Origin: Flectonema sp. DT1601
Lineage: Eukaryota
NCBI GenBank assembly: GCA_964019425.1
Contig: OZ025805.1
Coordinates: 372,001 to 436,000, forward strand
Length of the DNA stretch: 64,000 bases
Reading direction: 5' to 3'
Position numbers and translations under genes: made by a program. The notes under the pieces were generated by a model. That model worked only from the letters and a program-made list of their open reading frames with translations, searched no databases and was not told the DNA's origin. Of the stretch, positions 1,808 to 54,717 are shown in pieces. The number at the start of each line of letters is the position of its first letter. Within the stretch, counting starts at the first letter, position 1.

Positions 1808-2369
1808 ATGCAAGTTTTTGTGACGTGTCCTGATTGGGGACTCCCCGCAGTGACAGTGACGGCTGGTGCTGATTCAGTTGTGAACGACGTGTTGACAGAG
1901 GCTGCTGAGGAATGGGATGTGGATCCGGAGGAAGTTGAACTCTCGTTTGCTGGTGATACCCTTTGCGAAATTGATCGGCTGGCAGATCATGGAGTGGTTG
2001 CAAACAGCGAGTTGGAAATGTGGAAGAAGCAGTTTAGGATATTCGGTAAAAGCTGGTTTGTTGATGATGCAAAACGGGAGCAGCTGCTTCTTTGGATGAG
2101 AGATCACATTGCGGAGTATTTATGTCTGGACACTGCCACATTCGCAGAAGATGGTTGCCTAACTGTTGACGGTGACCTTCTTCCTTCAGATGCCGAACAG
2201 GTAGCTTTCCGCAATTCAAATTCCAACAGCACAGCCATGTCATCAGTTACCACTATCGGAGATGAGTTCTTGTCTTCCTGTTCACAAATTACTTCTCTTG
2301 ACCTTTCAAGTCTTAGTAGTGTCACCACTATAGGAAACTTATTCTTGTCTTCCTGTTCACAAATCACTT

Positions 2370-2437
2370 GGGATCACGACACCTGCCTCCTCGCGGCGGT
2401 CCCGGACGACTTCGATAGGGGTCGACAAAACAGTGTC
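2370..2437 (+). ncRNA. HDV-like self-cleaving ribozyme at the LINE 5' end
   Basis: P1 GGGATC/GGTCCC; P2 GACAC(C)T/AGTGTC; P3 GCC/GGC with loop TCCTCGC; P1.1 CC/GG; P4 CGACTTC/GGGGTCG; J4/2 with C2426 followed by As. P1 is 6 bp and P2 is bulged, so the fold is slightly non-canonical. Confidence 0.72.
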
Positions 2438-5341
2438 AAACACAAGAGATGCCAACAACATCAAAACCATCAAAACCAGCTACAACATCCAGAGCATACA
2501 AACCCTGGCTTGTCAAATAAAGAACGGAATAAACTAGCCCATGCCTTGAATGGCAATGGTGGACCAGGAAAGGACAGCAGAGACCGACGCCCGCGAGACG
2601 ATACTCGCGACAGGGACGAAAACCGTCCAAACAAGGAGGAACGTCGCATAGCGAAGCTCGAGAAAGAGAAACTCGACTCGCTAGACGAGATAGAGGAAGA
2701 GAAGCAACGACTGGGGCAGCAGAGAATGGCCATGGAACAGCACCACCACCAGAAGGAAACCAACCTTCAAGGACAAGAAAAACAGTTGGAACAGCAACGC
2801 CAACACCAACAACAAGAACTGCAAAGTCAGTACCACCAACAACAGCAGCAACTGCAAAGCCATCATCAGCTGAAGGAAACGGAAAGTCTCCAGAAGGAGC
2901 AAAACCTACAGGCTCAACTCAAGGAGCGACACCAGCACCAACAGAAGGAATTGGAGAAGCAATACCGCCAACAACAACAGCAACTGGAAAGCCAACAGCA
3001 GAAGAAGGACGCCGAGTCTGAACAGCAAACACATCTGACTCGGTCACAACTACAGAAGGAAAAGGAATCCTTCCAGACAGAGAAGGAACGGCTCCACCTC
3101 CAGCTGGATCAGCAGTTGAAGAACGAGAAGGAGCACCTCCACCAACAACTCCAACAGAAGGAAGACGAGGTTCGTAAAGAAAAGTTAGCAGAGAGAATAG
3201 AACTCCAACAACTGCGAGATGAACTAACTCAACAAGAACAGAACATCCAACGACGTGAGGAAGAGGTGAACCGAGGACAGCACCAACTACACCAACAACA
3301 ACAACAACTAGAGCAGCAGCAACAGCAATCGCAACATCAGCAACTGGAACTACAACAACAACGGCAACAACAGCAACAGCAACAACAGCATCAACAACTG
3401 GAACTGGAACAACAACAACTACAACAGCAACAGCAACTGCAACAACATCGACAACCGCAACAACAACCGCAACAGCAACCCGTACACTACATGCAACATC
3501 AACCGTATGCAACGTACGACACCTACGCCCAGCAGCAGCAGTCTTCCCACTACGAAGGGCTACAACAGGAACTGAAGCGGGAAAGAGAGGAGAAGAGCGA
3601 ACTACGCGAGATGCTCCGAACTCTCCAACAACAACTGGACGGATTGAGAGAAGAACTCAAGGCCCAACATGCTGAGGCGAAGAGGCAGCAGGAAACGGCG
3701 GGACGAGAAGCGAGAGAGATGCAAGAACGTTTCTTGCTAGAACTCGAAGCGGAACGGGTCCAGATCAGAGGGCTCAACTCACTGAGAGAAGAGGAAGAGG
3801 AACTTCAGATGGACACCACCCCTGATCAGGAAGCAAACACGGAAGTGAAGCAAACGCCACCAGTGAAGCTGCCCCAAGACGGTATGAGGGAGCTGGACGC
3901 CTCACGCAAGAAGCTGATGAAAGAAATCAATGAAGGGCAGGTAGCCGGACGATCGGCCATCCAAGAGCAGATGGTCCGAGAGGCCGGGAGACTGGCGCAG
4001 ACTCAGAAGAGCTGGGAGAACGCAGCACGCAAGGAGCGATCCAGGGTGGATAACCTCTCGCTGGCACCGGAATACTGGCCAGAGGGAATGGCGATCACGA
4101 AGGAGCAGTACGACGCCGGTGCAAAGGGAGTACACCTCACCACCAGAGAGGAGGCAAGGAAGAGGATGTCGGGAACACCTCCGGGAGCCTGGGAAACGTT
4201 ATCCCTGGTAACCCTGGAACCACCATCAGACACGGCGCAGAAAGTACAGGTAGTACTAAAGGAGACGACGAGCGACGGCGAGAAGAGAATTCTCAAGCAG
4301 CTCTGGATGACAACACTGGGAAGAGTGGTTGTACCATCCGGAACAGACGTCGTGCGGACGGAAAGCACGAGGGAGATGGTTGTCCGGGTGGACAAAAAAT
4401 GGTCCGGAGAGAAGAGATGGTCGGAAGTGAAGCGCTCCCCGTTCAGGGCAACGGAGGAATTGAAGAAGATGCCGGGGTATGTCGATACGTACAACCCGCG
4501 GATCGGAGACCAGAGCGTGACCGTGATGCTCAGGGTGAAGGTAGCCGAAGTGAAGAACTTCCTCCGAGAATCGGGGAAGGACGGCGTCTTCACCAAGGAA
4601 AAGGATCCGAGAGAGGAACGAGCAGTGAAGGCGGCGGTCATTTGGCTACCGAAGGACGAGACGCTCGGAATCGCTCGGGACAAGGCTGTAGAAGTCGATG
4701 GAGGGCTGGGACTCGTGGTAAACGAACACGGACTCGGGCTTCGAGTGACCAGCTGGCAGGAAACGGCGGCGAGGGAGAAACTGCACCTGCCGGCTAAGCT
4801 ACCGGAAACAAAGATCACGGGTATCCCGATCGGCACAACCACCGACGAAGCGATCAAGTGGCTGATCACGAAGGAAGGCTGGGAAGTGAGGAAGACGAAG
4901 GAAGGCGTACGGAACGGCATGCGATGGATGGTCGTCCGCGGTCCGGTGAGAACGCAGGAAACCATCACAGTGGATGGCGTCCTGTGCATGGTGGAGGCTG
5001 GGAAACAGAAGGAGGAAGTCGACCCGAAACGGAAGGAGACCAAACGCCCGAATGCGACACCGACGAAACCAGAGAAAAGGCGTGACCCGACGGAGGGAAC
5101 GGGAGGAAAGTGGTACACTCGATTGGAGTTCATCGAGTTTCATGGGAAGAAGAAGGGACAACGCCTATGGTTAGAAGCCAGCAACCCAACACCAACTACG
5201 ACGGCACCTACGAAGACAGCGACCGCAACGACAACAGCGAGAAAGGAGCCCAAGTCGACAAAAAAGAAGGAGAACAGCTCAGTGGACGAGAGATTGGACC
5301 GACTGGAACGTCTACTGATGGCGTTCATGGAACGGAATTGA
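2370..5341 (+). CDS. LINE ORF1: Q/E-rich coiled coil plus globular C-terminal region; true start uncertain
   Basis: Open from the element 5' end (in frame with host ATG 1808) to TGA 5339-5341; first in-frame ATG is only at about 2725. Confidence 0.85.
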
Positions 5342-8300
5342 CCGGCGGAGGACGGAAGGAACTGGGCGGAGACACGGAGACGTCTCCTGCTACAAGCTGG
5401 CGACGTTGAGAGGAACCCCGGACCGAGACCACGAATCGATGGGCTCACCGTGGGAACAATCAATGTCACCACACTAGAAGGAAAAATAGATGCCATCACA
5501 GATCTGAACCTAGATCTGATAGCTCTACAGGAAACTTCTCTGACGGGCCCACAGCAACGCCAGATGAAAAAACAGCTCGGTGAGAGAGGATGGGAGGCGA
5601 CGTTCGGGTTAGAGTGCAAATTACTAACCGATGGGCAAAAGACGTGGACGGCGGCGGGAGGCGTGGCCATCTTGACGCGCACTGGTACACCGGTGAGAAG
5701 GATAAAACACGATCGGCTCGACAACACAGGACGATTCGTACACGCGGGAGTGTCGTACGGAAATGGCAAGGTACTGCACGTTTTCTCGTTCTACGGAGAC
5801 GTACGTTCGGCGGTCTACACGGAAGAGTTGATTGCGGAGATGCTCGTGGAAGCAGCAGCTCTGGGTGATGTTCCCGTATTTATAGCGGGGGACTTCAACG
5901 TCGAAACAACGGAATCGCCGGCGCTTCTGTCGGCTTTCGCACACGGACTCTGGATAGATGCCGCCGTCTCGATGGGAAACATGACACCGACAAGCGAAGC
6001 GGGAAAAGGACTTCGTAGAATCGATGCTATTCTGATGAACCGCGGGGCGGCGACAGCAATCTCGAATGACACAACGATCCATGTGCATAAGAGTGAGCTG
6101 ATCCCGACACACAAGCCGGTCATCATTAGAAAGCTCAACATCTCACGCTACAACGAGAAGGCTCCTAGGCTGATAGTACCGAAACAGTTGGATACCTCCG
6201 AGACAACGGACCCGCGTGAGGGGAAGGCCGAAAGGCAACTCCACTGGACGCGAGCTGTAGCGACGGAAGATCCTGACAAGATGCTGGAGGCGCTTGGAGA
6301 GATCATCGAAAGATACCTTCTGACGGGAAAGCTGGAGATAAGTAACCCAGCCAAGTACAAGGGACGCGGGAAGAAGCGTGAGCCTGTGATGTGGACGAAC
6401 GCGGCGAAACAAGACGGGAGAGGAGCGACGTGCAGGGAAACGCGGAGAAGACTGCAGAAGATACGTGTTCTGGAGGAAGTGATGAAAATCACAAAGCAAC
6501 GCGATGGTCCGACGGTGCCGTCCCACGAAGTAATGAAACTCTGGAAAAAATTACGAAAACTCGATCCGACGACGGGATCCGAAATACCACAGACGGAGGA
6601 GCTTCGGATACTACTACAACAAGCGAGACAGGAGCAAGCGATAGAAAGCAAGAAGCTCCGAACTGAACGCATCCGCATGTGGAAACGGAATGTTGTCGAC
6701 AATTGGAATGACGACCGCACGAAGGTTTTCCAGTGGATCAGGAACGTCGAGCAATCGAAGACTGTTCTGATGGAAAAGGCAGATGGAAGCTGGACGGCCA
6801 ACTGCTCCGAGATGGATGAGGCCATGCACGCGGCATGGGACCCCATACTCAAAAAGTACTTGTCAGACCCGGAACCAGACTGGATGAAGTTCGAAGAACG
6901 GTACAGCAACTACATCGAGGAACACCCGATGCGATGCGAAGATATCACCGGGGAGGACGTTGCAAAAGCCCTCAGAAGGACTAGCTCGCGCAAAGCAGCT
7001 GGGGTAGACGGCTTCAGGATATCGGAGCTCAAGTTGCTACCGGAGGACATGATCCAGATGATAGCGGAATTCTACAACATAGTGGAGAGAACACACTGGC
7101 CGGAAGCACTTCTCACGGCACTGGTGTCGGCCATACCCAAAGGGGCAGGGACGAAACCACTGGAGCAGAGACCCATTACGGTGACATCCGCACTTTACAG
7201 GCTATGGGGCTGTATACGTATGGAAAAGGATGTAATGGAGTGGCAAGAAAAGTGGGCTCACGACGGGCAGTACGGCTACCGGAAGGGGAGATCTACGCTC
7301 GACCTCAGCTGGAAGATAGCACTAGACGTGGAACACGCAACTCTCTACGGAGAAGAGATTGCTGGAGTGACCACGGACTTCAGGAAGTGTTTTGACCTGA
7401 TCCCGCACGACATCCTCCTGAAATTAGTGAAGGAATTGGGCCTCGGTAATAAGATCCTGAGAACTGTGACGGATGTCTACCGGCGACTCAGAAGGAGATT
7501 CAAGTTCCCGAGCGGCGTCGGAGAAGAATTTGCCACCACCAACGGAATACTGCAAGGATGCCCGCTCAGCGTGGTGCTCTTCAATGCGCTGAGCTCGATA
7601 CTCAGCAAAGCAATCGAGAGGGAAGCCGATGTGACGCCCGGATCGTATGCGGACGACCTGACATTGTTTGGATCACGAACGAAGCTACAAGAAGGCGTGG
7701 AAGTCGTTGCGGAGTTCTGCACCCTGACCGGACAAGAACTCGCGCCTCAGAAATGCAAGTGGTTCTCGAACAGAGACCAGAGCCAGACCAACATCACAAT
7801 GGGGGACACAACACTGGACTTCGATGACAGTGTCGATATCGTGGGATGCCACCTCAGTATGAAAGGAACCACCAAGCAGATGGGGAGGATCACAGAAGAA
7901 GTGCTCGATAGAGCGAGGCGAATCCGGTTACTTCCGCTCAGATATCAAGCGAAGGAACAGATAGCTGCAGCTAGTGTCATGCCCAAGGCGCTCTTCGGAA
8001 CGGCACTGTACGATCCCGATGCGACGCGACTCGGACTGCTGAGAAGAGCAATGGCAACGGGGATTTTCCGCAAACTTGGAGGGAAAAGAACTAAGATGTC
8101 GCACACCATGGGCCTAACGCTACTCTGCAAGGGACATTGTGTGGATCCCGCGACGTACATTAGGTACAACAGACTCCTTGCACTCACCAGAATGCTACCG
8201 AAGCTAACTGAGAGGATACGCAGGGTATGGGAACACCTGCAAGAGCACACTGAAGCGACGAGAGGACCAGTCGGCCTCGCCCTGAGTACTCTGAAGGAAC

Positions 8301-10078
8301 TTGGATGGGAATGGTCAACTTTCTCGGTCTTCGAAGGTCCGGGAGGGACGACCGAACACGGACGGCTGGATGCGGGGCGCTGGCGGCACGATGTCAGAGA
8401 GGCGTGCAGGCGTTTCACCTGGAACAAAACAATTGCGGAAACGAGACGGGTAAACCTGAGAGGTATTGAAGCGGGCATCGACCGGAAAGAGACCCTGAAG
8501 GTCCTGAAGGAAGGAAAGGGCGACCCCTACCTGCGCGGAGTAGTGAAGCACTGCCTCCTGGACAACGTGTACACTGGTTCGATGAAGGCGGGAAACAAGA
8601 ACTGCGCGCACTGCGAGGAGGTTGACGACGTAGAGAGGACGGAGACCCTCGAGCACGTGAACTGGGATTGCAGAGCTTATGACACGATCCGACAGGAATA
8701 CCCGCAAGTGATGCTACAAGTTCGAAGCGATTGGCCCAATTGCCTGAGGCTACTCGGCATCAAGCCCGACAATGTGGAACTGCCGGCGGGGCTCACCGGA
8801 GACCTACAACGAATGTTCGCACGGATCAGGCTCCGCAGGGACGAGTACCAACAACTGGAGGAGAGACGGCTGACGGTTGTGGAATACGCTGGGAACAAAG
8901 AACCGGAAGTAGTTATGCGATACAACAACAAACTGGAAAAGTACATGCCAGTATACACCCAATGGCCCGAAGCCCTTGGATTGACCTTGTACTTAGCGCT
9001 TGCGAGCTACCTGAGGGAACTGAAGTGGCCTCGACAGCCAGACGGGGTCGGAGTCACCTTCCTGGAATTAGCGATCGACTTCGAAGCGTATGCGGGGGTT
9101 GACATACCGACCACAGTCCACGAAGGCCACGTAGCGAAGTGCACCAAAGACAGAGCCGCCGGGAAGAAAGCTGACGTCATGTGTGGACTGATGCTAAGAT
9201 TGAACTTGGTTCACAAGCATTTAGAAGGCGAGGAACAAAGAACCTTTCCCGACTACTGCGTAGGAAGCAACAAAGCCTTACGTCCACTAGGAGCCCCGGT
9301 ACTGAAAGGTTTGAAGAAACGACCAGCTTTTCTGATGGGAGACGAAACAGTAGACACAATTCGGAGGACGGTCCAAGAGGCGAACGACGGAAAAGCTGAC
9401 AAAATCAGATTCGGCTTCGAGACTGAGTGCAGGCACTCGAGCGAGAGGGAAGGGAGAGCGGAGAAATGGATAACCGCGGCACGACTTTTCCCATCAAAGG
9501 AAAAAGACGTACAGCTGAGGAGGGAGCTCTGCGAGCGAGGACCGACACGCCCGCCACCCGAGGTCGTCAAGAGACCGGGCATCGCGGAGGGACAAGGAAC
9601 GATGAACTCGACGTGCTACGGACACTTCAAGAAGAAATGCAATAGTTGTCGACGGGCCGGAAACACCATCTACCAGTGCTGCCACAACCATCACACTCTG
9701 GGGGATGAAGATGGACAAATACCGATATGGGACTTTTGCAGCAAGCACAAGCTTACTCCATGTGCAGTCTGCATAGTGATCGGCAGAGGATCTGAGCAAT
9801 GTTGCAGAAACAGCCACCACCGATGCCGTCACCACGAGATGGCTCCCTGCAACGACTGCAAGCGGAATCCGGATCCGGAACAACGGACTGCCACGAAATG
9901 CTGCAACAAAAAGCATCACGGGCCAATTATAAGGACGTTGACGAGGAGGGCGAAGCAGCCGACGAAGCATGATATGCAAACCAGCACATCGCTTCTAAAA
10001 TTAGGTTTCACCAAACAAATGAAACCAAAAGCAGAGGAAACCCCTGAAAGGGAACCCCAGGACAAGGGGTTAACTTAG
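5342..10078 (+). CDS. LINE ORF2: 2A peptide, APE endonuclease, reverse transcriptase, CCHC zinc finger, C-terminal Cys/His repeats
   Basis: APE motifs TINV, IALQET, GGVAIL, AGDFN, RIDAIL, PTHKP; RT motifs QRPIT, DFRKCFD, GILQGCPLS, YADD (7646-7657); CAHC...ETLEHVNWDC; frame is open from the base after the ORF1 stop. Confidence 0.95.
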   Translation, partial: PAEDGRNWAETRRRLLLQAGDVERNPGPRPRIDGLTVGTINVTTLEGKIDAITDLNLDLIALQETSLTGPQQRQMKKQLGERGWEATFGLECKLLTDGQKTWTAAGGVAILTRTGTPVRRIKHDRLDNTGRFVHAGVSYGNGKVLHVFSFYGDVRSAVYTEELIAEMLVEAAALGDVPVFIAGDFNVETTESPALLSAFAHGLWIDAAVSMGNMTPTSEAGKGLRRIDAILMNRGAATAISNDTTIHVHKSELIPTHKPVIIRKLNISRYNEKAPRLIVPKQLDTSETTDPREGKAERQLHWTRAVATEDPDKMLEALGEIIERYLLTGKLEISNPAKYKGRGKKREPVMWTNAAKQDGRGATCRETRRRLQKIRVLEEVMKITKQRDGPTVPSHEVMKLWKKLRKLDPTTGSEIPQTEELRILLQQARQEQAIESKKLRTERIRMWKRNVVDNWNDDRTKVFQWIRNVEQSKTVLMEKADGSWTANCSEMDEAMHAAWDPILKKYLSDPEPDWMKFEERYSNYIEEHPMRCEDITGEDVAKALRRTSSRKAAGVDGFRISELKLLPEDMIQMIAEFYNIVERTHWPEALLTALVSAIPKGAGTKPLEQRPITVTSALYRLWGCIRMEKDVMEWQEKWAHDGQYGYRKGRSTLDLSWKIALDVEHATLYGEEIAGVTTDFRKCFDLIPHDILLKLVKELGLGNKILRTVTDVYRRLRRRFKFPSGVGEEFATTNGILQGCPLSVVLFNALSSILSKAIEREADVTPGSYADDLTLFGSRTKLQEGVEVVAEFCTLTGQELAPQKCKWFSNRDQSQTNITMGDTTLDFDDSVDIVGCHLSMKGTTKQMGRITEEVLDRARRIRLLPLRYQAKEQIAAASVMPKALFGTALYDPDATRLGLLRRAMATGIFRKLGGKRTKMSHTMGLTLLCKGHCVDPATYIRYNRLLALTRMLPKLTERIRRVWEHLQEHTEATRGPVGLALSTLKELGWEWSTFSVFEGPGGTTEHGRLDAGRWRHDVREACRRFTWNKTIAETRRVNLRGIEAGIDRKETLKVLKEGKGDPYLRGVVKHCLLDNVYTGSMKAGNKNCAHCEEVDDVERTETLEHVNWDCRAYDTIRQEYPQVMLQVRSDWPNCLRLLGIKPDNVELPAGLTGDLQRMFARIRLRRDEYQQLEERRLTVVEYAGNKEPEVVMRYNNKLEKYMPVYTQWPEALGLTLYLALASYLRELKWPRQPDGVGVTFLELAIDFEAYAGVDIPTTVHEGHVAKCTKDRAAGKKADVMCGLMLRLNLVHKHLEGEEQRTFPDYCVGSNKALRPLGAPVLKGLKKRPAFLMGDETVDTIRRTVQEANDGKADKIRFGFETECRHSSEREGRAEKWITAARLFPSKEKDVQLRRELCERGPTRPPPEVVKRPGIAEGQGTMNSTCYGHFKKKCNSCRRAGNTIYQCCHNHHTLGDEDGQIPIWDFCSKHKLTPCAVCIVIGRGSEQCCRNSHHRCRHHEMAPCNDCKRNPDPEQRTATKCCNKKHHGPIIRTLTRRAKQPTKHDMQTSTSLLKLGFTKQMKPKAEETPEREPQDKGLT
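5381..5425 (+). other. 2A/StopGo ribosome-skipping peptide RLLLQAGDVERNPGP
   Basis: Exact D(V/I)ExNPGP match with the typical upstream LLLxxG, in the ORF1/ORF2 frame. Confidence 0.92.
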
Positions 10079-12181
10079 GTTGGCCGAACCAGTGCCTCGT
10101 CATCTCACCGTGCTAGCAAGCCTGAATGACAGCACTCAAAATGGTACATATATTCCTGTTCACAAATCACTTCTGTAAACCTTTCAGGTCTTAGTAGTGT
10201 CACCATAGTAGGAGGTGGATTCCTGTTTTCCTGTTCACGAGTCGTTTCTCTTGATCTTTCTTGTCTTAGTAGTGTCACCACTATAGGAAACTTATTCTTG
10301 TCTTCCTGTTCACAAATCACTTCTGTAAACCTTTCAGGTCTTAGTAGTGTCACCATAGTAGGAGGTGGATTCCTGTTTTCCTGTTCACGAGTCGTTTCTC
10401 TTGATCTTTCTTGTCTTAGTAGTGTCACTACTATTGGTGATAATTTCTTGTCTTACTGTTCACAAATCACTTTTCTCGACCTTTCAGGTCTCAATAGTGT
10501 CACCTCTATTGGTGATGATTTCTTGTATTCTTGTAAACGGATAGCAACAGTTGACCTTTCAGGTCTTAGTAGTGTCACCACTATTGGGAATAATTTCTTG
10601 TTTTCCTGTGAACAAATCACTTCTCTTGACCTTTCAGGTCTTTGCTGTGTTACTTCTATTGGAGATAGTTTCCTTTCTTTCTGTACACAAATCACTTCTG
10701 TGAACCTTTCGGGTCTTGATAGTGTAACCGCTATAGCAAATGACTTCTTGCGTTGTTGTGTATGTATTATTTCTCTTGATCTTTCAAGTCTTATTAGTGT
10801 CACCACAATAGGAAGTAATTTCTTGCGTAGTTGTTCAGAAATCACTTCTCTTGACCTTTCAAGTCTTGGTAGTGTCACCACTATTGGTGATGACTTTCTC
10901 AGTGAATGCGACGCTCTTGAATCTGTGCAGCTGCCTGAAAGTAATAGCGTTCTCTTTGAGGAGTCTGTGAAAGCAGCGATTGATCACTCAGGTTAAAGTG
11001 GTGAGTTGATTCTTAAAGTTTTGTTATTTTTGTTATTTTTGTTTTATTAATTAGTTGACCTTCGTGTACATTCTGACTAAAATATGAAAACTTCTTATCA
11101 AAGATTACGGAATAAGAACAATCATCGATTTGAGAACTACTTTAAAAGGTATTCCGGTCACATAAAAGAAAGGAAAGAAGAGTAAGAAAAGAAAATAATA
11201 ATTAAGAATATTTAAGAAAATAATATTTAAAAAAAGTAAATAAGTAAAAAAAAATGCTCCACAAGGCCGTGACCGTGGTATACGTTTCTCCAAACTTTTG
11301 GTTGGAATTGTAAGTTTTCCCTTAATAAAAAGTTCATTGTGACGATAACAACCCCATTTTTATTCTCCTTTTTAAAACTTTCTTAATATTTTATTGCATG
11401 GCATTCACTCCAGATCGAAGTTAATATTATTTTTCTTAAAACAGCGACACGGATGTAAATTATTAGAGACAGAGGCTATCCGGAATTTTACATTTTTATT
11501 AAAAATGCTTTTTTTTAATCTAAACTTCCATCACAGGATAATTTTTCTCACAAGAACTCTTGCGATGCAGGTTTCTGTAGTGTTTCCCGACTCAGGATTT
11601 GGAGATGCAGTTTTGACATCAACATCAGAGTCTGTCGTACGTGATGTTATAGAAACAGTTAACTGAGGAATGGGATGTTGTCAGAATTTATTGAGATGAT
11701 CGTATTGCGGTGATGTTTTTTAGAAAGGAATGGTTTTACTGATTTGAATAAGATAAATAAACTGCTAACACCGAGTAATGACATTTATTTTGAACAATAA
11801 AATTAGATTCGACTTGTGAGACATTTACTGTTGAAGATGTATTGATTTGATATCGAGTTGGGTAATTGTTTCCTATCTAACCTTCATTTGGTAATCTGAT
11901 CAGAGTTTACATTTGGTTGGGAATATTTGAAAAAAATAAGCAGGGAAGTTCTCCATTGATATCGGAAATGAGTACCTAGGCATGGGTCACATCCTTGTAG
12001 TGTTCACTTTCATTCATTCAGGTCACTGAAACAGATGAATCCTTTAGTAAAACAGTATTCATACCCCTTTGAGGGAATGTAATTACATGTCGCATCCTCG
12101 TAGTACTCGATACCCAGATGTCACTTGTACGAGTTCTTTCTAACAGAACCTTTCCCACCTCACAGCAAATTATTTAAAAAA

Positions 12182-14055
12182 GGGTTATGGCCCAAAATAC
12201 CCCAAAGTGGCCCAAAATACCCCGAAGTGGCCCAAAATACCCCAAAGTGGCCCAAAATACCCCGAAGTGGCCCAAAATACCCCGAAGTGGCCCAAAATAC
12301 CCCAAAGTGGCCCAAAACCCGGTCTGGCTGTGCACCCTGGGGTCCCAACCACATAGCTGGGTATGAGGATGGGTCACAGTCACCAGGTATTACTCATACA
12401 ACCATCAGGGTTTAGAGCATCACAAGCACCAGACAGGTCACCTAAATTTACTCGAAAGTTTGGGCAATTCGAACGTCAGCATTCACATTAGCAAGCAACC
12501 AGTCCTGAGTACTTAAAGAACCCAACCATTACGTGTATCAGCCACAGTCACACTTAGTATAGCGTTAGTACAGAGGACACGGATCTGCTATGCAGGGAAG
12601 TGACTTGAACTCGTTCAACTAATTAATGTGTGCAGATATAAGCGCCGCGAATTGACGGGTCTGAAGTTATGCTTTCCGAAGAGAGTAACCACCCACGCGA
12701 GTGTTATTTTGACGCCATAACCTGTAGCTTTCAACACATAACAACCAGGGATAATTCTCAGTAAGGCCGCCGTCACCGTGAAGCTGCTACGAATATAACC
12801 CAACAAACTAGCAATTCCTCCAACTTTGTTCATATGTGCAGACACATAGTCAGCTACACACTTGGAGACTTTCTTAATCTCTTTAAGCTACTTTGCTTTA
12901 GCAGTGGATCTTGCTTATACTATTTTTTTGGCTGAGTTTCAGTGGCAGCAGGTTGAGTTTCAACTATGTTTCGGGCATCTTAGAGATTGAGAATAAAAGT
13001 TCGTAGTAAAAGAGTAAAAGCCTAGAGAGAATGAAAACATTTGTGATTAGGAACCTGAACACTTTACTGAACGAAGCATCGTAGGCAACCAGTTTCCTTC
13101 GAGAATCTGCAGGTGGTGCAGGGCTAAATCGAGATGAGGAAGATAACACCCGTACACCTTAAGCGCACACGGATGTTGAGATAACGTTTGTATGATGTTC
13201 ACTTGACGAGATTATCAAAGACAAATACTCACGGATAGGTTGGGTTGCTCTTCAGGTCCTGATAGTATTCTCAGCCTCTGGAAGTTTTACTGAGTGCATG
13301 CAAAGAACGGTATGTGTGCAGGGCTGGGTCACCTTACAGAGAACTGCTGTCCTCTTACACGTCATTCCAACCGAATTTCAAAGTCAAGACACCTGCGAGT
13401 TACAGACAGCCTGGTCGCAAGCGACACTCCTGTTTCTGACCGGGTTATCAGGGTATCTAACTCATGCAGGCATGAGAGCTTTTTTAAGGCTACTTTGAAT
13501 TATCAAGAGCGCAGTACTGCCCGAAGGGTTCCCGCGTGTCAAGATGCATTTGCATGTACTGAGCAGAAGTTCCAGAAAGAAGATTACTTTTATCATTTCC
13601 CAAGTCATCACATCCTTAACCGTTTGTGTTATTAGCTTTCAATCAATCCATTACCATAAATCCACAGATGAGTGTGCTGAATAGAAAGTAAAACGGGACG
13701 GCAAAAAGCTTTTGTCCAAGTGACACAGAAATACTGGCCAGGCAGGTTCCAAAAAGAAGTTTCAAGAAAAAAAAACAAGAAAAAAAAAAAAAAAATTGGC
13801 AGTGGAAAAAGTTACAACTTGTAGTGAACAGCGAAAAAAAAAACATCACTTCCAGTTTCTGTACACACATTATCCTGATTTACAAGTTCCCAAAGCCGGG
13901 TTCGGTATATTTTGGACCACTTCGGGGTATTTTGGGCCACTTTGGGGTATTTTGGGCCACTTTGGGGTATTTTGGGCCACTTCGGGGTATTTTGGGCCAC
14001 TTTGGGGTATTTTGGGCCATTTGCAAAAAAAGTGGGGTATTTTGGGCCATTGCCC
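12182..14055. mobile_element. Non-autonomous foldback/Mutator-like DNA transposon with minisatellite TIRs
   Basis: Ends GGGTTATGGCCC... and ...GGGCCATTGCCC; arms of 20-bp tandem units GGCCCAAAATACCCC(A/G)AAGT (about 12189-12318 and 13905-14048, inverted); 9-bp TSD TTTAAAAAA at 12173-12181 and 14056-14064; empty site visible near 1795-1803. Confidence 0.88.
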
Positions 14056-14944
14056 TTTAAAAAATGACAATGCAAGTTTTTGTGACGTGTCCTGATTGGG
14101 GACTCCCCGCAGTGACAGTGACGGCTGCTGCTGATTCAGTTGTGAACGACGTGTTGACGGCGGCGGCTGGGGAGTGGGATGTGGATCCGGATGAAGTTGA
14201 ACTCTCGTTTGCTGGTGATACCCTTTGTGAAACTGATCGGCTGGCAGATCATGGAGTGGTTGCAGACAGCGAGTTGGAAATGTGGAAGAAGCAGTTTAGG
14301 ATATTCGGTAAAAGCTGGTTTGTTGATGATGCAAAACGGGAAAAGCTGCTTCTTTGGATGAGAGATCACATTGCGGAGTATTTATGTCTGGACACTGCCA
14401 CATTCACAGAAGATGGTTGCCTCACTGTTGACGGTGACCTGCTTCCTTCAGATGCCGAACAGGTTGCTTTCCGCAATTCAAATTCCAACAGCACAGCCAT
14501 GTCATCAGTTAACACTATTGGAGATGGATTCTTGTCTTCCTGTTCACAAATTACTTCTCTTGACTTATCATGTCTTTGTAGTGTCACTACTATTGGACAT
14601 AGATTCTTATATTTCTGTTCAGAAATCACTTCTGTAAACCTTTCAGGTCTTAGTAGTGTCACTACTATTGGAGATAAATTCTTATATTATTGTTCAAGGA
14701 TCGAAGTTATTATTATTTTTAAAACAGCGACGCGGATGTAAATTATTTGAGACAGAGGCTATCTGGAGTTCTACATTTTATATTTTACTCTAACTTCTGA
14801 CTTCTTGAGGAAAATAAATACATGAAGTAGAAATGTAAGGAAGTACAGTATTGATGTATGTGTTTGAACTGTTCAATAATCAGAAAGACTCACAAGCAGC
14901 GATTCGTACTTCTGTTTTTCGTTTGAAATCAATGAATAATGTAA

Positions 14945-15059
14945 TGGCCTTCCGACGCCACCTGGACCGCAACTCGTTCACAGTGCCCTACCCGGTTCTC
15001 CACCGGACCGTCTGAGCGACGGGATCCATGGGATTCAAACCCCTAAACACTGGTTAATC
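14945..15059 (+). mobile_element. 3' fragment of the ~690-bp ribozyme-headed short retroelement
   Basis: TGGCCTTCCGACGCC...CACTGGTTAAT matches the last ~115 bp of the full copies and abuts an LRR at the usual register. Confidence 0.9.
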
Positions 15060-15154: not shown

Positions 15155-15227
15155 GGGTAACGAAACTCGGACAGCGCGCCTCCTCGTGGTGTTGCCTGGA
15201 TGCACCTTGTGTGTAACTAGAGTGCTG
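15155..15227 (+). ncRNA. HDV-like ribozyme heading the short retroelement (also 51349-51421, 52362-52434, 53149-53221, 54025-54097)
   Basis: P1 GGGTAAC/GTTGCCT with G1-U wobble; P2 CAGCGC/GTGCTG; P3 GCC/GGT with loop TCCTCGT; P1.1 CC/GG; P4 TGCAC/GTGTA; J4/2 ACTAGA. Confidence 0.9.
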
Positions 15228-15834
15228 ACGTATTGTTGTTGTTGCTGTGTATTCTTTTACCCCCGTTTTATTTTCCGGTAGCCTAACCTTTAAAAAAAAA
15301 GGACAACATAGCAGAAGGTCAGGTGATCCGGCCCGGGATACTCAGGCACCCAGAGCTCACAGGGGCCACCGGGTTTTTATTTTTTCCTTAGTGGCATGAT
15401 TTCCCTTTACCCCCATTTCCTTCAAACTTCCCCCGTTTAGTCTTTTCACGCATGGGGGGATTATAAGTTCAGGTCGCCTGAAATGTATTAACAGTATCAG
15501 CCCCGCGAGTTACTCGGGAAGCTCCCATGCAATGTGTGGAGAAAGAGGCCATCCCTCCCCCTACCTCTCTGCTTTACTACGTCGTTTTTTGTGTGTGGCA
15601 TTTCTTTTCTTTTCAATCCTGTTCTTTCACACGCGGTTGTTCGAGCGGTTGTGAACCACCTTGGGTCTCTTACGGTCTCCAAGCTACTGTTGTGCGAAGA
15701 AACAAATCTGTTGGTGCGGTGGCCTTCCGACGCCACCTGGACCGAAACTCGTTCACAGTGCCCTACCCGGTTCTCCACCGGACCGCCTGAGCGACGGGAT
15801 CCATGGGATTCAAACCCCTAAACACTGGTTAATT
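15155..15834 (+). mobile_element. Non-autonomous short retroelement (SINE/SIDER-like), copy A
   Basis: 20-bp TSD TTGCTGTAAACAAATCACTA at 15135-15154 and 15835-15854; near-identical to four copies at 51-55 kb. Confidence 0.95.
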
Positions 15835-51348: not shown

Positions 51349-52047
51349 GGGTAACGAAACTCGGATAGCGCGCCTCCTCGTGGTGTTACCTGGATGCACC
51401 TTGTGTGTAACTAGAGTGCTGACGTATTGTTGTTGTTGCTGTGTATTCTTTTACCCCCGTTTTATTTTCCGGTAGCCTAACCTTTAAAAAAAAAAAAGGA
51501 CAACATAGCAGAAGGTCAGGTGATCCGGCCCGGGATACTCAGGCACCCAGAGCTCACAGGGGCCACCGGGTTTTTATTTTTTCCTTAGTGGCATGATTTC
51601 CCTTTACCCCCATTTCCTTCAAACTTCCCCCGTTTAGTCTTTTCACGCATGGGGGGATTATAAGTTCAGGTCGCCTGAAATGTATTAACAGTATCAGCCC
51701 CGCGAGTTACTCGGGGAGCTCCCATGCAATGTGTGGAGAAAGAGGCCATCCCTCCCCCTACCTCTCTGCTTTACTACGTCGTTTTTTGTGTGTGGCATTT
51801 CTTTTCTTATATTCTTTTCTTTTCAATCTTGTTCCTTCACACGCAGTTGTTCGAGCGGTTGTGAACCACCTTGGGTCTCTTACGGTCTCCAAGCTACTGT
51901 TGTGCGAAGAAACAAATCTGTTGGTGCGGTGGCCTTCCGACGCCACCTGGACCGCAACTCGTTCACAGTGCCCTACCCGGTTCTCCACCGGACCGCCTGA
52001 GCGACGGGATCCATGGGATTCAAACCCCTAAACACTGGTTAATTTTT
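51349..52047 (+). mobile_element. Short retroelement, copy B
   Basis: TSD TTCCTGTTACCACATCACTG at 51329-51348 and 52048-52067. Confidence 0.95.
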
Positions 52048-52361: not shown

Positions 52362-53053
52362 GGGTAACGAAACTCGGACAGCGCGCCTCCTCGTGGTGTT
52401 GCCTGGATGCACCTTGTGTGTAACTAGAGTGCTGACGTATTGTTGTTGCTGTGTATTCTTTTACCCCCGTTTTATTTTCCGGTAGCCTAACCTTTAAAAA
52501 AAAAGGACAACATAGCAGAAGGTCAGGTGATCCGGCCCGGGATACTCAGGCACCCAGAGCTCACAGGGGCCACCGGGTTTTTATTTTTTCCTTAGTGGCA
52601 TGATTTCCCTTTACCCCCATTTCCTTCAAACTTCCCCCGTTTAGTCTTTTCACGCATGGGGGGATTATAAGTTCAGGTCGCCTGAAATGTATTAACAGTA
52701 TCAGCCCCGCGAGTTACTCGGGGAGCTCCCATGCAATGTGTGGAGAAAGAGGCCATCCCTCCCCCTACCTCTCTGCTTTACTACGTCGTTTTTTTGTGTG
52801 TGGCATTTCTTTTCTTATATTCTTTTCTTTTCAATCTTGTTCCTTCACACGCAGTTGTTCGAGCGGTTGTGAACCACCTTGGGTCTCTTACGGTCTCCAA
52901 GCTACTGTTGTGCGAAGAAACAAATCTGTTGGTGCGGTGGCCTTCCGACGCCACCTGGACCGCAACTCGTTCACAGTGCCCTACCCGGTTCTCCACCGGA
53001 CCGCCTGAGCGACGGGATCCATGGGATTCAAACCCCTAAACACTGGTTAATTT
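52362..53053 (+). mobile_element. Short retroelement, copy C
   Basis: TSD TTACTGTTTAGGAATCACTT at 52342-52361 and 53054-53073. Confidence 0.95.
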
Positions 53054-53148: not shown

Positions 53149-53854
53149 GGGTAACGAAACTCGGATAGCGCGCCTCCTCGTGGTGTTGCCAGGATGCACC
53201 TTGTGTGTAACTAGAGTGCTGACGTATTGTTGTTGTTGCTGTGTATTCTTTTACCCCCGTTTTATTTTCCGGTAGCCTAACCTTTAAAAAAAAAAAAGGA
53301 CAACATAGCAGAAGGTCAGGTGATCCGGCCCGGGATACTCAGGCACCCAGAGCTCACAGGGGCCACCGGGTTTTTATTTTTTCCTTAGTGGCATGATTTC
53401 CCTTTACCCCCATTTCCTTCAAACTTCCCCCGTTTAGTCTTTTCACGCATGGGGGGATTATAAGTTCAGGTCGCCTGAAATGTATTAACAGTATCAGCCC
53501 CGCGAGTTACTCGGGGAGCTCCCATGCAATGTGTGGAGAAAGAGGCCATCCCTCCCCCTACCTCTCTGCTTTACTACGTCGTTTTTTTGTGTGTGGCATT
53601 TCTTTTCTTATATTCTTTTCTTTTCAATCTTGTTCCTTCACACGCAGTAGTTCGAGCGGTTGTGAACCACCTTGGGTCTCTTACGGTCTCCAAGCTACTG
53701 TTGTGCGAAGAAACAAATCTGTTGGTGCGGTGGCCTTCCGACGCCACCTGGACCGCAACTCGTTCACAGTGCCCTACCCGGTTCTCCACCGGACCGCCTG
53801 AGCGACGGGATCCATGGGATTCAAACCCCTAAACACTGGTTAATTTTTTTTTTT
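53149..53854 (+). mobile_element. Short retroelement, copy D (flanks do not match)
   Basis: Left flank TTCCTGTTCAGGAATCACTA, right flank TTCCTGTTTGCGTGTCACTT; both in target register. Confidence 0.93.
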
Positions 53855-54024: not shown

Positions 54025-54717
54025 GGGTAACGAAACTCGGACAGCGCGCCTCCTCGTGGTGTTGCCTGGATGCACCTTGTGTGTAACTAGAGTGCTGACG
54101 TATTGTTGTTGTTGCTGTGTATTCTTTTACCCCCGTTTTATTTTCCGGTAGCCTAACCTTTAAAAAAAAAGGACAACATAGCAGAAGGTCAGGTGATCCG
54201 GCCCGGGATACTCAGGCACCCAGAGCTCTCAGGGGCCACCGGGTTTTTATTTTTTCCTTAGTGGCATGATTTCCCTTTACCCCCATTTCCTTCAAACTTC
54301 CCCCGTTTAGTCTTTTCACGCATGGGGGGATTATAAGTTCAGGTCGCCTGAAATGTATTGACAGTATCAGCCCCGCGAGTTACTCGGGGAGCTCCCATGC
54401 AATGTGTGGAGAAAGAGGCCATCCCTCCCCCTACCTCTCTGCTTTACTACGTCGTTTTTTGTGTGTGGCATTTCTTTTCTTATATTCTTTTCTTTTCAAT
54501 CTTGTTCCTTCACACGCAGTTGTTCGAGCGGTTGTGAACCACCTTGGGTCTCTTACGGTCTCCAAGCTACTGTTGTGCGAAGAAACAAATCTGTTGGTGC
54601 GGTGGCCTTCCGACGCCACCTGGACCGCAACTCGTTCACAGTGCCCTACCCGGTTCTCCACCGGACCGCCTGAGCGACGGGATCCATGGGATTCAAACCC
54701 CTAAACACTGGTTAATT
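54025..54717 (+). mobile_element. Short retroelement, copy E
   Basis: TSD TTCCTGTTCAGGAATTACTA at 54005-54024 and 54718-54737. Confidence 0.95.

Follow-up and report, generated by a model that had tools for sequence, protein, structure and literature searches.

A non-LTR retrotransposon of Flectonema sp. DT1601 is inserted in a host LRR gene at a position where its first open reading frame, ORF1, continues the frame of the host protein, and the leader of ORF1 is free of methionine. Both the frame and a ten-residue motif at the end of the leader are conserved across relatives. The element was found in the window, a stretch of 64,000 nucleotides of contig OZ025805.1 (positions 372,001 to 436,000), to which all coordinates refer; the features of the host gene and of the element are on the + strand. 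The AUG-less, in-frame arrangement is real and not an artefact, and the element represents a ribozyme-bearing, site-specific type of non-LTR element with a probable second kind of self-processing peptide. We give an even chance to the proposal that uncleaved RNA is translated from the AUG of the host gene, and that the ORF1 protein (ORF1p) is then freed at the motif.

The insertion and the host gene

A single open frame of 1177 amino acids runs from the host ATG at 1808 to the TGA at 5339-5341, which bears out the continuity of ORF1 with the host Ubl-LRR frame reported in the initial annotation. The 5' part of the host gene (1808..2369, 187 codons) encodes a Ubl-like domain and the first BspA-type LRR repeats; its Pfam matches, Rad60-SLD (E 0.0014) and LRR_5 (E 0.0007), are both under the curated cut-off. 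The ATG of the host gene is the sole in-frame ATG upstream of the conserved motif, called here the NGN motif. The remaining LRR repeats follow the element and terminate at a stop codon at 10994-10996. With the insertion removed, the host gene reads as an intact ORF with a Ubl-like domain and BspA-type LRRs. Its paralogues are found in the window at 14064, 46398, 48535, 50862 and 55780. The region upstream of the host gene (1042-1804) is duplicated 10.3 kb downstream, at 11386-12182, with 88-100% identity in most blocks. Two arrays of a 20-bp unit in opposite orientations (12188-12327 and 13881-14050) lie beside LRR-gene upstream sequence and may mark another mobile element.

The element itself (2370..10152, 7783 bp) is a full-length APE-RT non-LTR retrotransposon and the window's only copy. 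Its first base is G2370, the junction codon is TGG (2369-2371), and it is flanked by 20-bp target-site duplications at 2350..2369 and 10153..10172, which agree at 20/20 bases. The APE-type non-LTR class is indicated by this duplication and by the direct repeats, which include no long terminal repeat. ORF2 matches the APE endonuclease (PF03372, E 2e-6) followed by the reverse transcriptase (PF00078, E 2e-23), and its best sequence match in the PDB is L1 ORF2p (E 5e-17). No match to RNase H was found in the element with Pfam. The nearest named relatives of ORF2 are proteins of the diplonemids Flectonema neradi, Diplonema papillatum and D. japonicum. Over 2321-3300, one contig at depth 2 aligns without gaps, differs in 13 letters and may be another copy.

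The same target is used by a SINE-like non-coding element, present in the window as five copies (15155-15832, 51349-52042, 52362-53050, 53149-53843 and 54025-54715; 678-695 bp, ~95% identical) and a 3' fragment (14945-15057). Target duplications of ~20 bp were found in four of the five, and each copy starts with its own HDV-like fold, which has a 7-bp P1. The 3' ends of the non-coding and the autonomous elements differ, so the mobiliser of the former is uncertain. All five copies are inserted in the same register and, as an internal control, the host frame closes within 6 or 20 codons in every one of them. The register is common to the non-coding element and is therefore set by the choice of target.

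The leader of ORF1

Two other readings in the initial annotation were accurate. The first in-frame ATG of the element, ATG 2726, is 118 codons from the element start, and an out-of-frame uORF (2449..2520, 23 aa, MPTTSKPSKPATTSRAYKPWLVK) contains AAA-CCC-T at 2500-2506 and ends in AAA-TAA (2515-2520), although this stop is not conserved. A Met-free linker (2438..2527), open in the ORF1/host frame, precedes the NGN motif. It is the most variable part, with a mean pairwise amino acid identity of 76% in five copies compared to 92% after the motif and 96% in the motif itself, and it carries two in-frame indels in this copy. A given frame remained open in 24% of 5000 dinucleotide shuffles of 2370-2524, and the third frame of the leader is likewise open, for 54 codons. 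The oddities of this copy alone are thus not beyond chance, and the case has been built on its relatives. Since 7% of the non-synonymous single changes in the linker would create a stop, its openness in five copies is only mild evidence of selection. A chance ORF was rejected as the explanation of the open frame.

The ORF1 search returned seven proteins, whose clusters total 31 members, nine in the LRR-targeting family and 22 in three sister families. Four of the nine LRR-family proteins, which are known from gene predictions alone (and gene callers favour fusions), reach the 5' end; each of these is an in-frame fusion to a different LRR paralogue, with the junction at IT[W/R]DHDTC. The fixed insertion register suspected earlier is thus real. 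The other five proteins begin more than 300 residues downstream, and neither the uORF ATG nor Met 2726 is the start of any of the nine. The 5' ends of all full copies are precise, at G1, which suggests that the predicted ribozyme described below cuts. The ORF1 stop is in the same place in six other copies.

The predicted ribozyme

Self-cleavage 5' of G2370, the first base of the element, is predicted from an HDV-like ribozyme fold at 2370..2437. The fold is a nested double pseudoknot that satisfies our ribozyme descriptor. It consists of P1 (2370-2375/2398-2403, 6 bp), P1.1 GG (2404-2405), P2 (2378-2382/2433-2437, 5 bp), P3 (2385-2387/2395-2397) with loop L3 (2388-2394), P4 (2407-2410/2421-2424) and a putative catalytic C (2426) in J4/2. 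The four other 5'-complete copies all have Gly where this copy has Ser, which implies a G at 2432 and thus a P2 of 6 bp. The stems of this copy are in the range of the R2 ribozymes, in which P1 has 6-7 bp and P2 at least 5 bp (PMC3774820).

The descriptor, which was written and tuned after the sequence had been viewed, has six matches in the window compared to two in 100 shuffled windows. The six sites are G2370 and the first bases of the five copies of the non-coding element. Rfam RF00094 aligns at 2368-2440 with 20.6 bits (E 1.3 in 601 bases), which does not reach the gathering score of 50, and the Rfam scan of the entire window does not list a ribozyme at 2370. Pairing probabilities of P1 calculated with ViennaRNA, without pseudoknots, are 0.2-0.8 here and 0-0.6 in the non-coding element, and are uninformative on cleavage. 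The ribozyme-core pattern had no match in the metagenome contigs. None of 19 distant loci from an ORF2-based scan (23-56% identical in their best segments) was informative on the 5' end, and no core was found in the ten of them that were inspected for ORFs and core. RNA downstream of the L1Tc ribozyme attenuates it in vitro (PMC4035085), which sets a precedent for partial ribozyme cutting.

The NGN motif

The sequence NKLAHALNGN (2528..2557) is a candidate cleavage or skip motif with a predicted cut after 2557. It resembles the viral motif NKxMHxxNGN, after which cleavage generates the capsid N-termini of IMNV and OmRV (PMC7968656). OmRV has a second such site, NHVMHALNGN, and the first capsid residue in the OmRV cryo-EM structure is directly after the motif, for CM-1 only (PMC7968656). 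Six of the seven fixed positions of the viral motif match. The seventh, Met, is Ala in all close families, and the predicted site is followed by Gly and not by Pro or Ile; both differences count against the proposed release of ORF1p at the motif. The positions that vary between the retrotransposon families are the x positions of the viral motif, as the natural variants NKLAHALNGN, NKLAHTINGN, NKLAHSANGN, NKEAHITNGN, NRRAHALNGN and NRRAHSLNGN show. Of six ORF1 families, five retain the form N[K/R]xAHxxNGN, at a distance of ~33-63 residues from the leader's first residue, and the number of NKxxHxxNGN matches expected from the composition of both ORFs is ~1e-5. A profile made from six instances was searched against 93 proteins and 19 loci, with a best reversed-sequence control of 3.2 bits. 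Among distant ORF1 homologues it gave 35.9 bits for P0213, 15.3 for P0171 (NKLMHSLFGN) and 6.9 for P0152.

PMC7968656, on OmRV, was the sole relevant paper on the motif in a literature search limited to the main texts of freely accessible papers; the motif is not in the 'pseudo-2A' literature, nor in PMC12846837. Within the same scope, most queries on the targeting of protein-coding genes in frame gave no result. Since the motif is conserved at the protein level, the ribosomes that read it must have entered ahead of 2528, in a part of the element that offers no in-frame AUG. Neither the ribozyme nor the motif was named in the initial annotation; with them, the point at issue is less the start of ORF1 than the way in which ORF1 is cut free. 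A ten-residue motif tied to two dsRNA viruses in the literature searched gains a cellular home and a set of natural variants. The mechanism of its cutting becomes directly testable, and it may yield a 2A-like co-expression tool.

Families with and without their own AUG

A profile search with 103 matches added two families to the LRR-targeting family and its three sisters. A relative in the Flectonema neradi transcriptome is 38% identical in the C-terminal domain of ORF1 and 63% in ORF2. Two of three isoforms of its gene join a host LRR to WDRVTRLHAAVSDDFDRGR in the same register and frame. Its leader of 50 codons is Met-free, carries the motif NKEAHITNGN and cannot contain an ATG in the uORF frame. 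ORF2 is from the same Trinity gene as the host-fused ORF1, and the assembled transcript crosses the predicted cut site. The isoforms could derive from pre-mRNA or DNA, and the host start is possibly not genuine.

The cathepsin-targeting family is 42% identical and has a Met-free leader of 63 codons with the motif NRRAHALNGN. Three of its ten members are fused in frame, after GCNGGL, to papain-family protease genes (Pfam) that represent two distinct host genes. Four are fused in frame to another short ORF, on contigs of the same size, and perhaps belong to one array. Two are inner fragments, and P0220 is predicted from the first Met after the motif. All seven members that show the leader are therefore host-fused in frame. 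The cathepsin hosts start with what appears by eye to be a signal peptide. An AUG in another frame inside the ribozyme of this family is possible.

The families with Met-free leaders are in the host frame in three of three cases (LRR genes in two species, cathepsin genes and one further ORF), whereas the three AUG-bearing families all read the ribozyme in another frame and are not host-fused; all of these are predicted proteins, among which fusions are favoured by the gene callers. Nine of the 22 members of these sister families begin with MP[P/S]RGG, a sequence obtained when the ribozyme core is translated in the other frame from an AUG within it. At the position of this AUG the present copy has CTG, and TAG is found at 2416 in that frame. 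Two of the AUG-bearing families keep the NGN motif and one is without it. Three sister-family members are joined to poly-Lys runs. Beyond the ribozyme, the leaders of different families have no sequence in common, and the first Met after the motif is at +28, +56 or +229 depending on the family. The AUG-bearing clusters P0003-P0006 are rarely on contigs of the same size as full-length ORF2 matches; they may be ORF1-only elements or may have ORF2s that were not retrieved. The ribozyme-coding start of P0025 is tandemly duplicated.

Translation of ORF1

The initial annotation offered four origins for the ORF1 start: borrowed host initiation, a +1 shift, non-AUG initiation and a private 1-nt indel. 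Borrowed host initiation has gained ground, because in-frame fusions are found in five of five LRR-family copies that bear a 5' end, two of three Flectonema isoforms and seven of ten cathepsin-family members. If the host AUG is used, the capped, SL trans-spliced mRNA of the host gene would carry the element; essentially all D. papillatum mRNAs bear a trans-spliced leader (PMC10161547). Ribozyme cutting would be slow or incomplete, so that uncut RNA would be translated and RNA cut at G2370 would be the template for reverse transcription. The NGN motif would free ORF1p with one and the same N-terminus (Gly, 2558) irrespective of the host part, the length of which ranges among the known copies from 34 to 359 aa. 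ORF2p would be made at a low level by readthrough of TGA 5339 or by re-initiation and would then be freed by 2A.

The correlation of frame across targets favours the host AUG over an AUG-independent start, and both routes may operate. Frame agreement at three targets could arise by chance in about 1 in 27 cases, or 1 in 9 if only two of the targets are independent. An efficient ribozyme would sever the host AUG from ORF1, and the cathepsin signal peptide would send the fusion to the ER unless the cut were co-translational. The ribozyme and the apparent signal peptide thus weigh against host initiation, except if RNA cleavage is partial and the NGN motif acts during translation.

A broader and more tentative proposal, to which we assign somewhat less than an even chance, is that a diplonemid lineage has become a translational parasite. 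It would have lost its own ORF1 start, would insert into protein-coding multigene families at a codon-locked register and would be read from the host AUG through its own ribozyme. The host leader, even a signal peptide, would be shed co-translationally by NxxxHxxNGN, a self-processing peptide of a second class, distinct from 2A, that toti-like viruses also possess, and partial cleavage would split the RNA into mRNA and template. If this is true, target specificity serves translation: the choice of site fixes the frame and supplies the cap and the start codon. It has long been asked how R2 and other AUG-less elements with ribozyme-cleaved RNA are translated, and here families with and without an AUG can be compared.

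We consider it rather unlikely that the ribozyme frees the element RNA, that this uncapped RNA initiates without an AUG in the leader as in R2, and that the NGN motif then trims the leader, the host frame being incidental. The HDV-like fold at the exact 5' end is consistent with such a route, which also accounts for the open Met-free leader, the motif and the precise 5' ends. In R2, the ribozyme is held to favour initiation that does not depend on a cap (PMC12203849), and the in-frame TTG 2510 corresponds to Leu in five of five LRR-family copies. However, the host frame of three AUG-less families at three kinds of target, as opposed to the other frame of the AUG-bearing ones, has no place in this explanation, and neither does the divergence of the leaders past the ribozyme.

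It is improbable that the AUG-less copies produce no ORF1p themselves and depend for their movement on unseen copies, or on the AUG-bearing sisters, acting in trans. The sisters are in the same collection, and many copies are broken, including the five LRR-family proteins that start far downstream. Nevertheless, both ORFs of this copy are intact, three families that are 38-42% identical have the same AUG-less layout, and none of the four other 5'-complete copies has an in-frame AUG. A start of ORF1 at Met 2726 or 2732, reached by scanning or by re-initiation after the uORF, is about as improbable. These are the first in-frame ATGs, and P0220 was called from such a Met, but the 66 codons upstream, which would be non-coding, are conserved as protein; Met 2726 is Thr in P0012, and the first Met after the motif changes its place from family to family.

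AAA-stop is the consensus of the Euplotes +1 frameshift. This copy has the sites for a shift from the uORF AUG 2449, at AAA-TAA or AAA-CCC-T, into ORF1 just before the motif; S-N-K, which permits AAA-TAA, is also present in P0007 and P0116, and an A-run is possible in three S-K-K copies. Poor decoding of UAA accompanied by +1 re-pairing has been described, and rampant frameshifting is not known even in non-Euplotes ciliates (PMC5009743). S-x-K precedes the motif in the AUG-bearing families as well, so AAA-TAA is likely a by-product. A programmed +1 shift is scarcely credible, because the sites are not conserved (AAA-TAA, which requires x-N-K, is impossible in three of the four other copies and AAA-CCC-T, which requires N-P, in all four), the Flectonema leader cannot hold the uORF ATG and the openness of the frame upstream of 2449 is left unexplained; an AAA-stop that is conserved and links an ORF with its own AUG to the +1 frame was not found. 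The private indel was rejected, since the uORF ATG is in frame in none of the four other 5'-complete copies, all of which are host-fused in the same frame.

Comparison with known systems

The element resembles the L1Tc/ingi elements of trypanosomes (RIME/NARTc, RHS hot spot), which are euglenozoan APE-RT elements with a 5' HDV-like ribozyme and a 2A peptide before the endonuclease (PMC4035085, PMC3708506), a preferred site in a protein-coding multigene family and a short non-coding partner at the same site (PMC7563717). The ingi clade is described as lacking ORF1 (PMC3708506), whereas an ORF1 of >900 codons precedes ORF2 here. Insertions of ingi/RIME in RHS are described as nonsense or frameshift pseudogenes (PMC7563717), but the host frame is kept here. 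Furthermore, the RNase H match is missing here, and the NGN motif has not been reported for the ingi clade. Like R2, the element is site-specific, has a 5' HDV-like ribozyme fold and would be co-transcribed with its target and lack conventional initiation (PMC12203849). Unlike it, R2 has a single ORF, is not APE-type and targets rDNA, which offers no host frame to borrow.

The likeness to IMNV and Omono River virus extends to HALNGN, the end of OmRV CM-2 (PMC7968656), to the same variable x positions and to the distant ORF1 homologue with NKLMHSLFGN. The differences are Ala for Met, Gly after the site and the setting in a retrotransposon ORF1. A 2A peptide at the N-terminus of ORF2p is shared with the 2A-bearing APE-type non-LTR elements (Odon et al. 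2013). Most of those are described as being without ORF1 (PMC3708506, PMC3894237), whereas here ORF1 is present and the head of ORF2 has no Met.

ORF1 body and ORF2

The ORF1 body (2558..5341) consists of a Q-rich coiled coil followed by domains for which the fold search gave a weak RRM match alone (E 9e-4, TM 0.14). ORF2 (5342..10078) begins in frame right after the ORF1 TGA, has no Met ahead of the endonuclease domain and comprises APE, RT and a Cys/His-rich tail. At its head is a 2A-like peptide (5351..5425, DGRNWAETRRRLLLQAGDVERNPGP), which starts three codons after the ORF1 stop. It ends at 5425 with GDVERNPGP, which agrees with the consensus D(V/I)ExNPGP, given as GD(V/I)ExNPGP in PMC3708506. 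The region 5336-5425, TGA-C followed by the in-frame, Met-less ORF2 with its 2A, is a candidate for coupling by readthrough plus 2A. This arrangement is apparently common to a sister family: the frameshifted tail of one of its proteins fits the same 2A run at 24/25 positions (shuffled maximum 14).

In two ORF2 relatives from Flectonema, P0033 and P0034, the endonuclease is preceded by an N-terminal domain, which in P0034 matches Josephin weakly (E 0.012). In place of 2A, P0033 has the words LRGG and IRGG there, whereas a 2A-like run is present in P0034, which points to several means of releasing ORF2p within the clade. The tail of ORF2 (~9600-9930) contains three Cys/His repeats, CxxHxxxxCxxC...CCxxxHH, which have no Pfam match and are kept in the diplonemid relatives.
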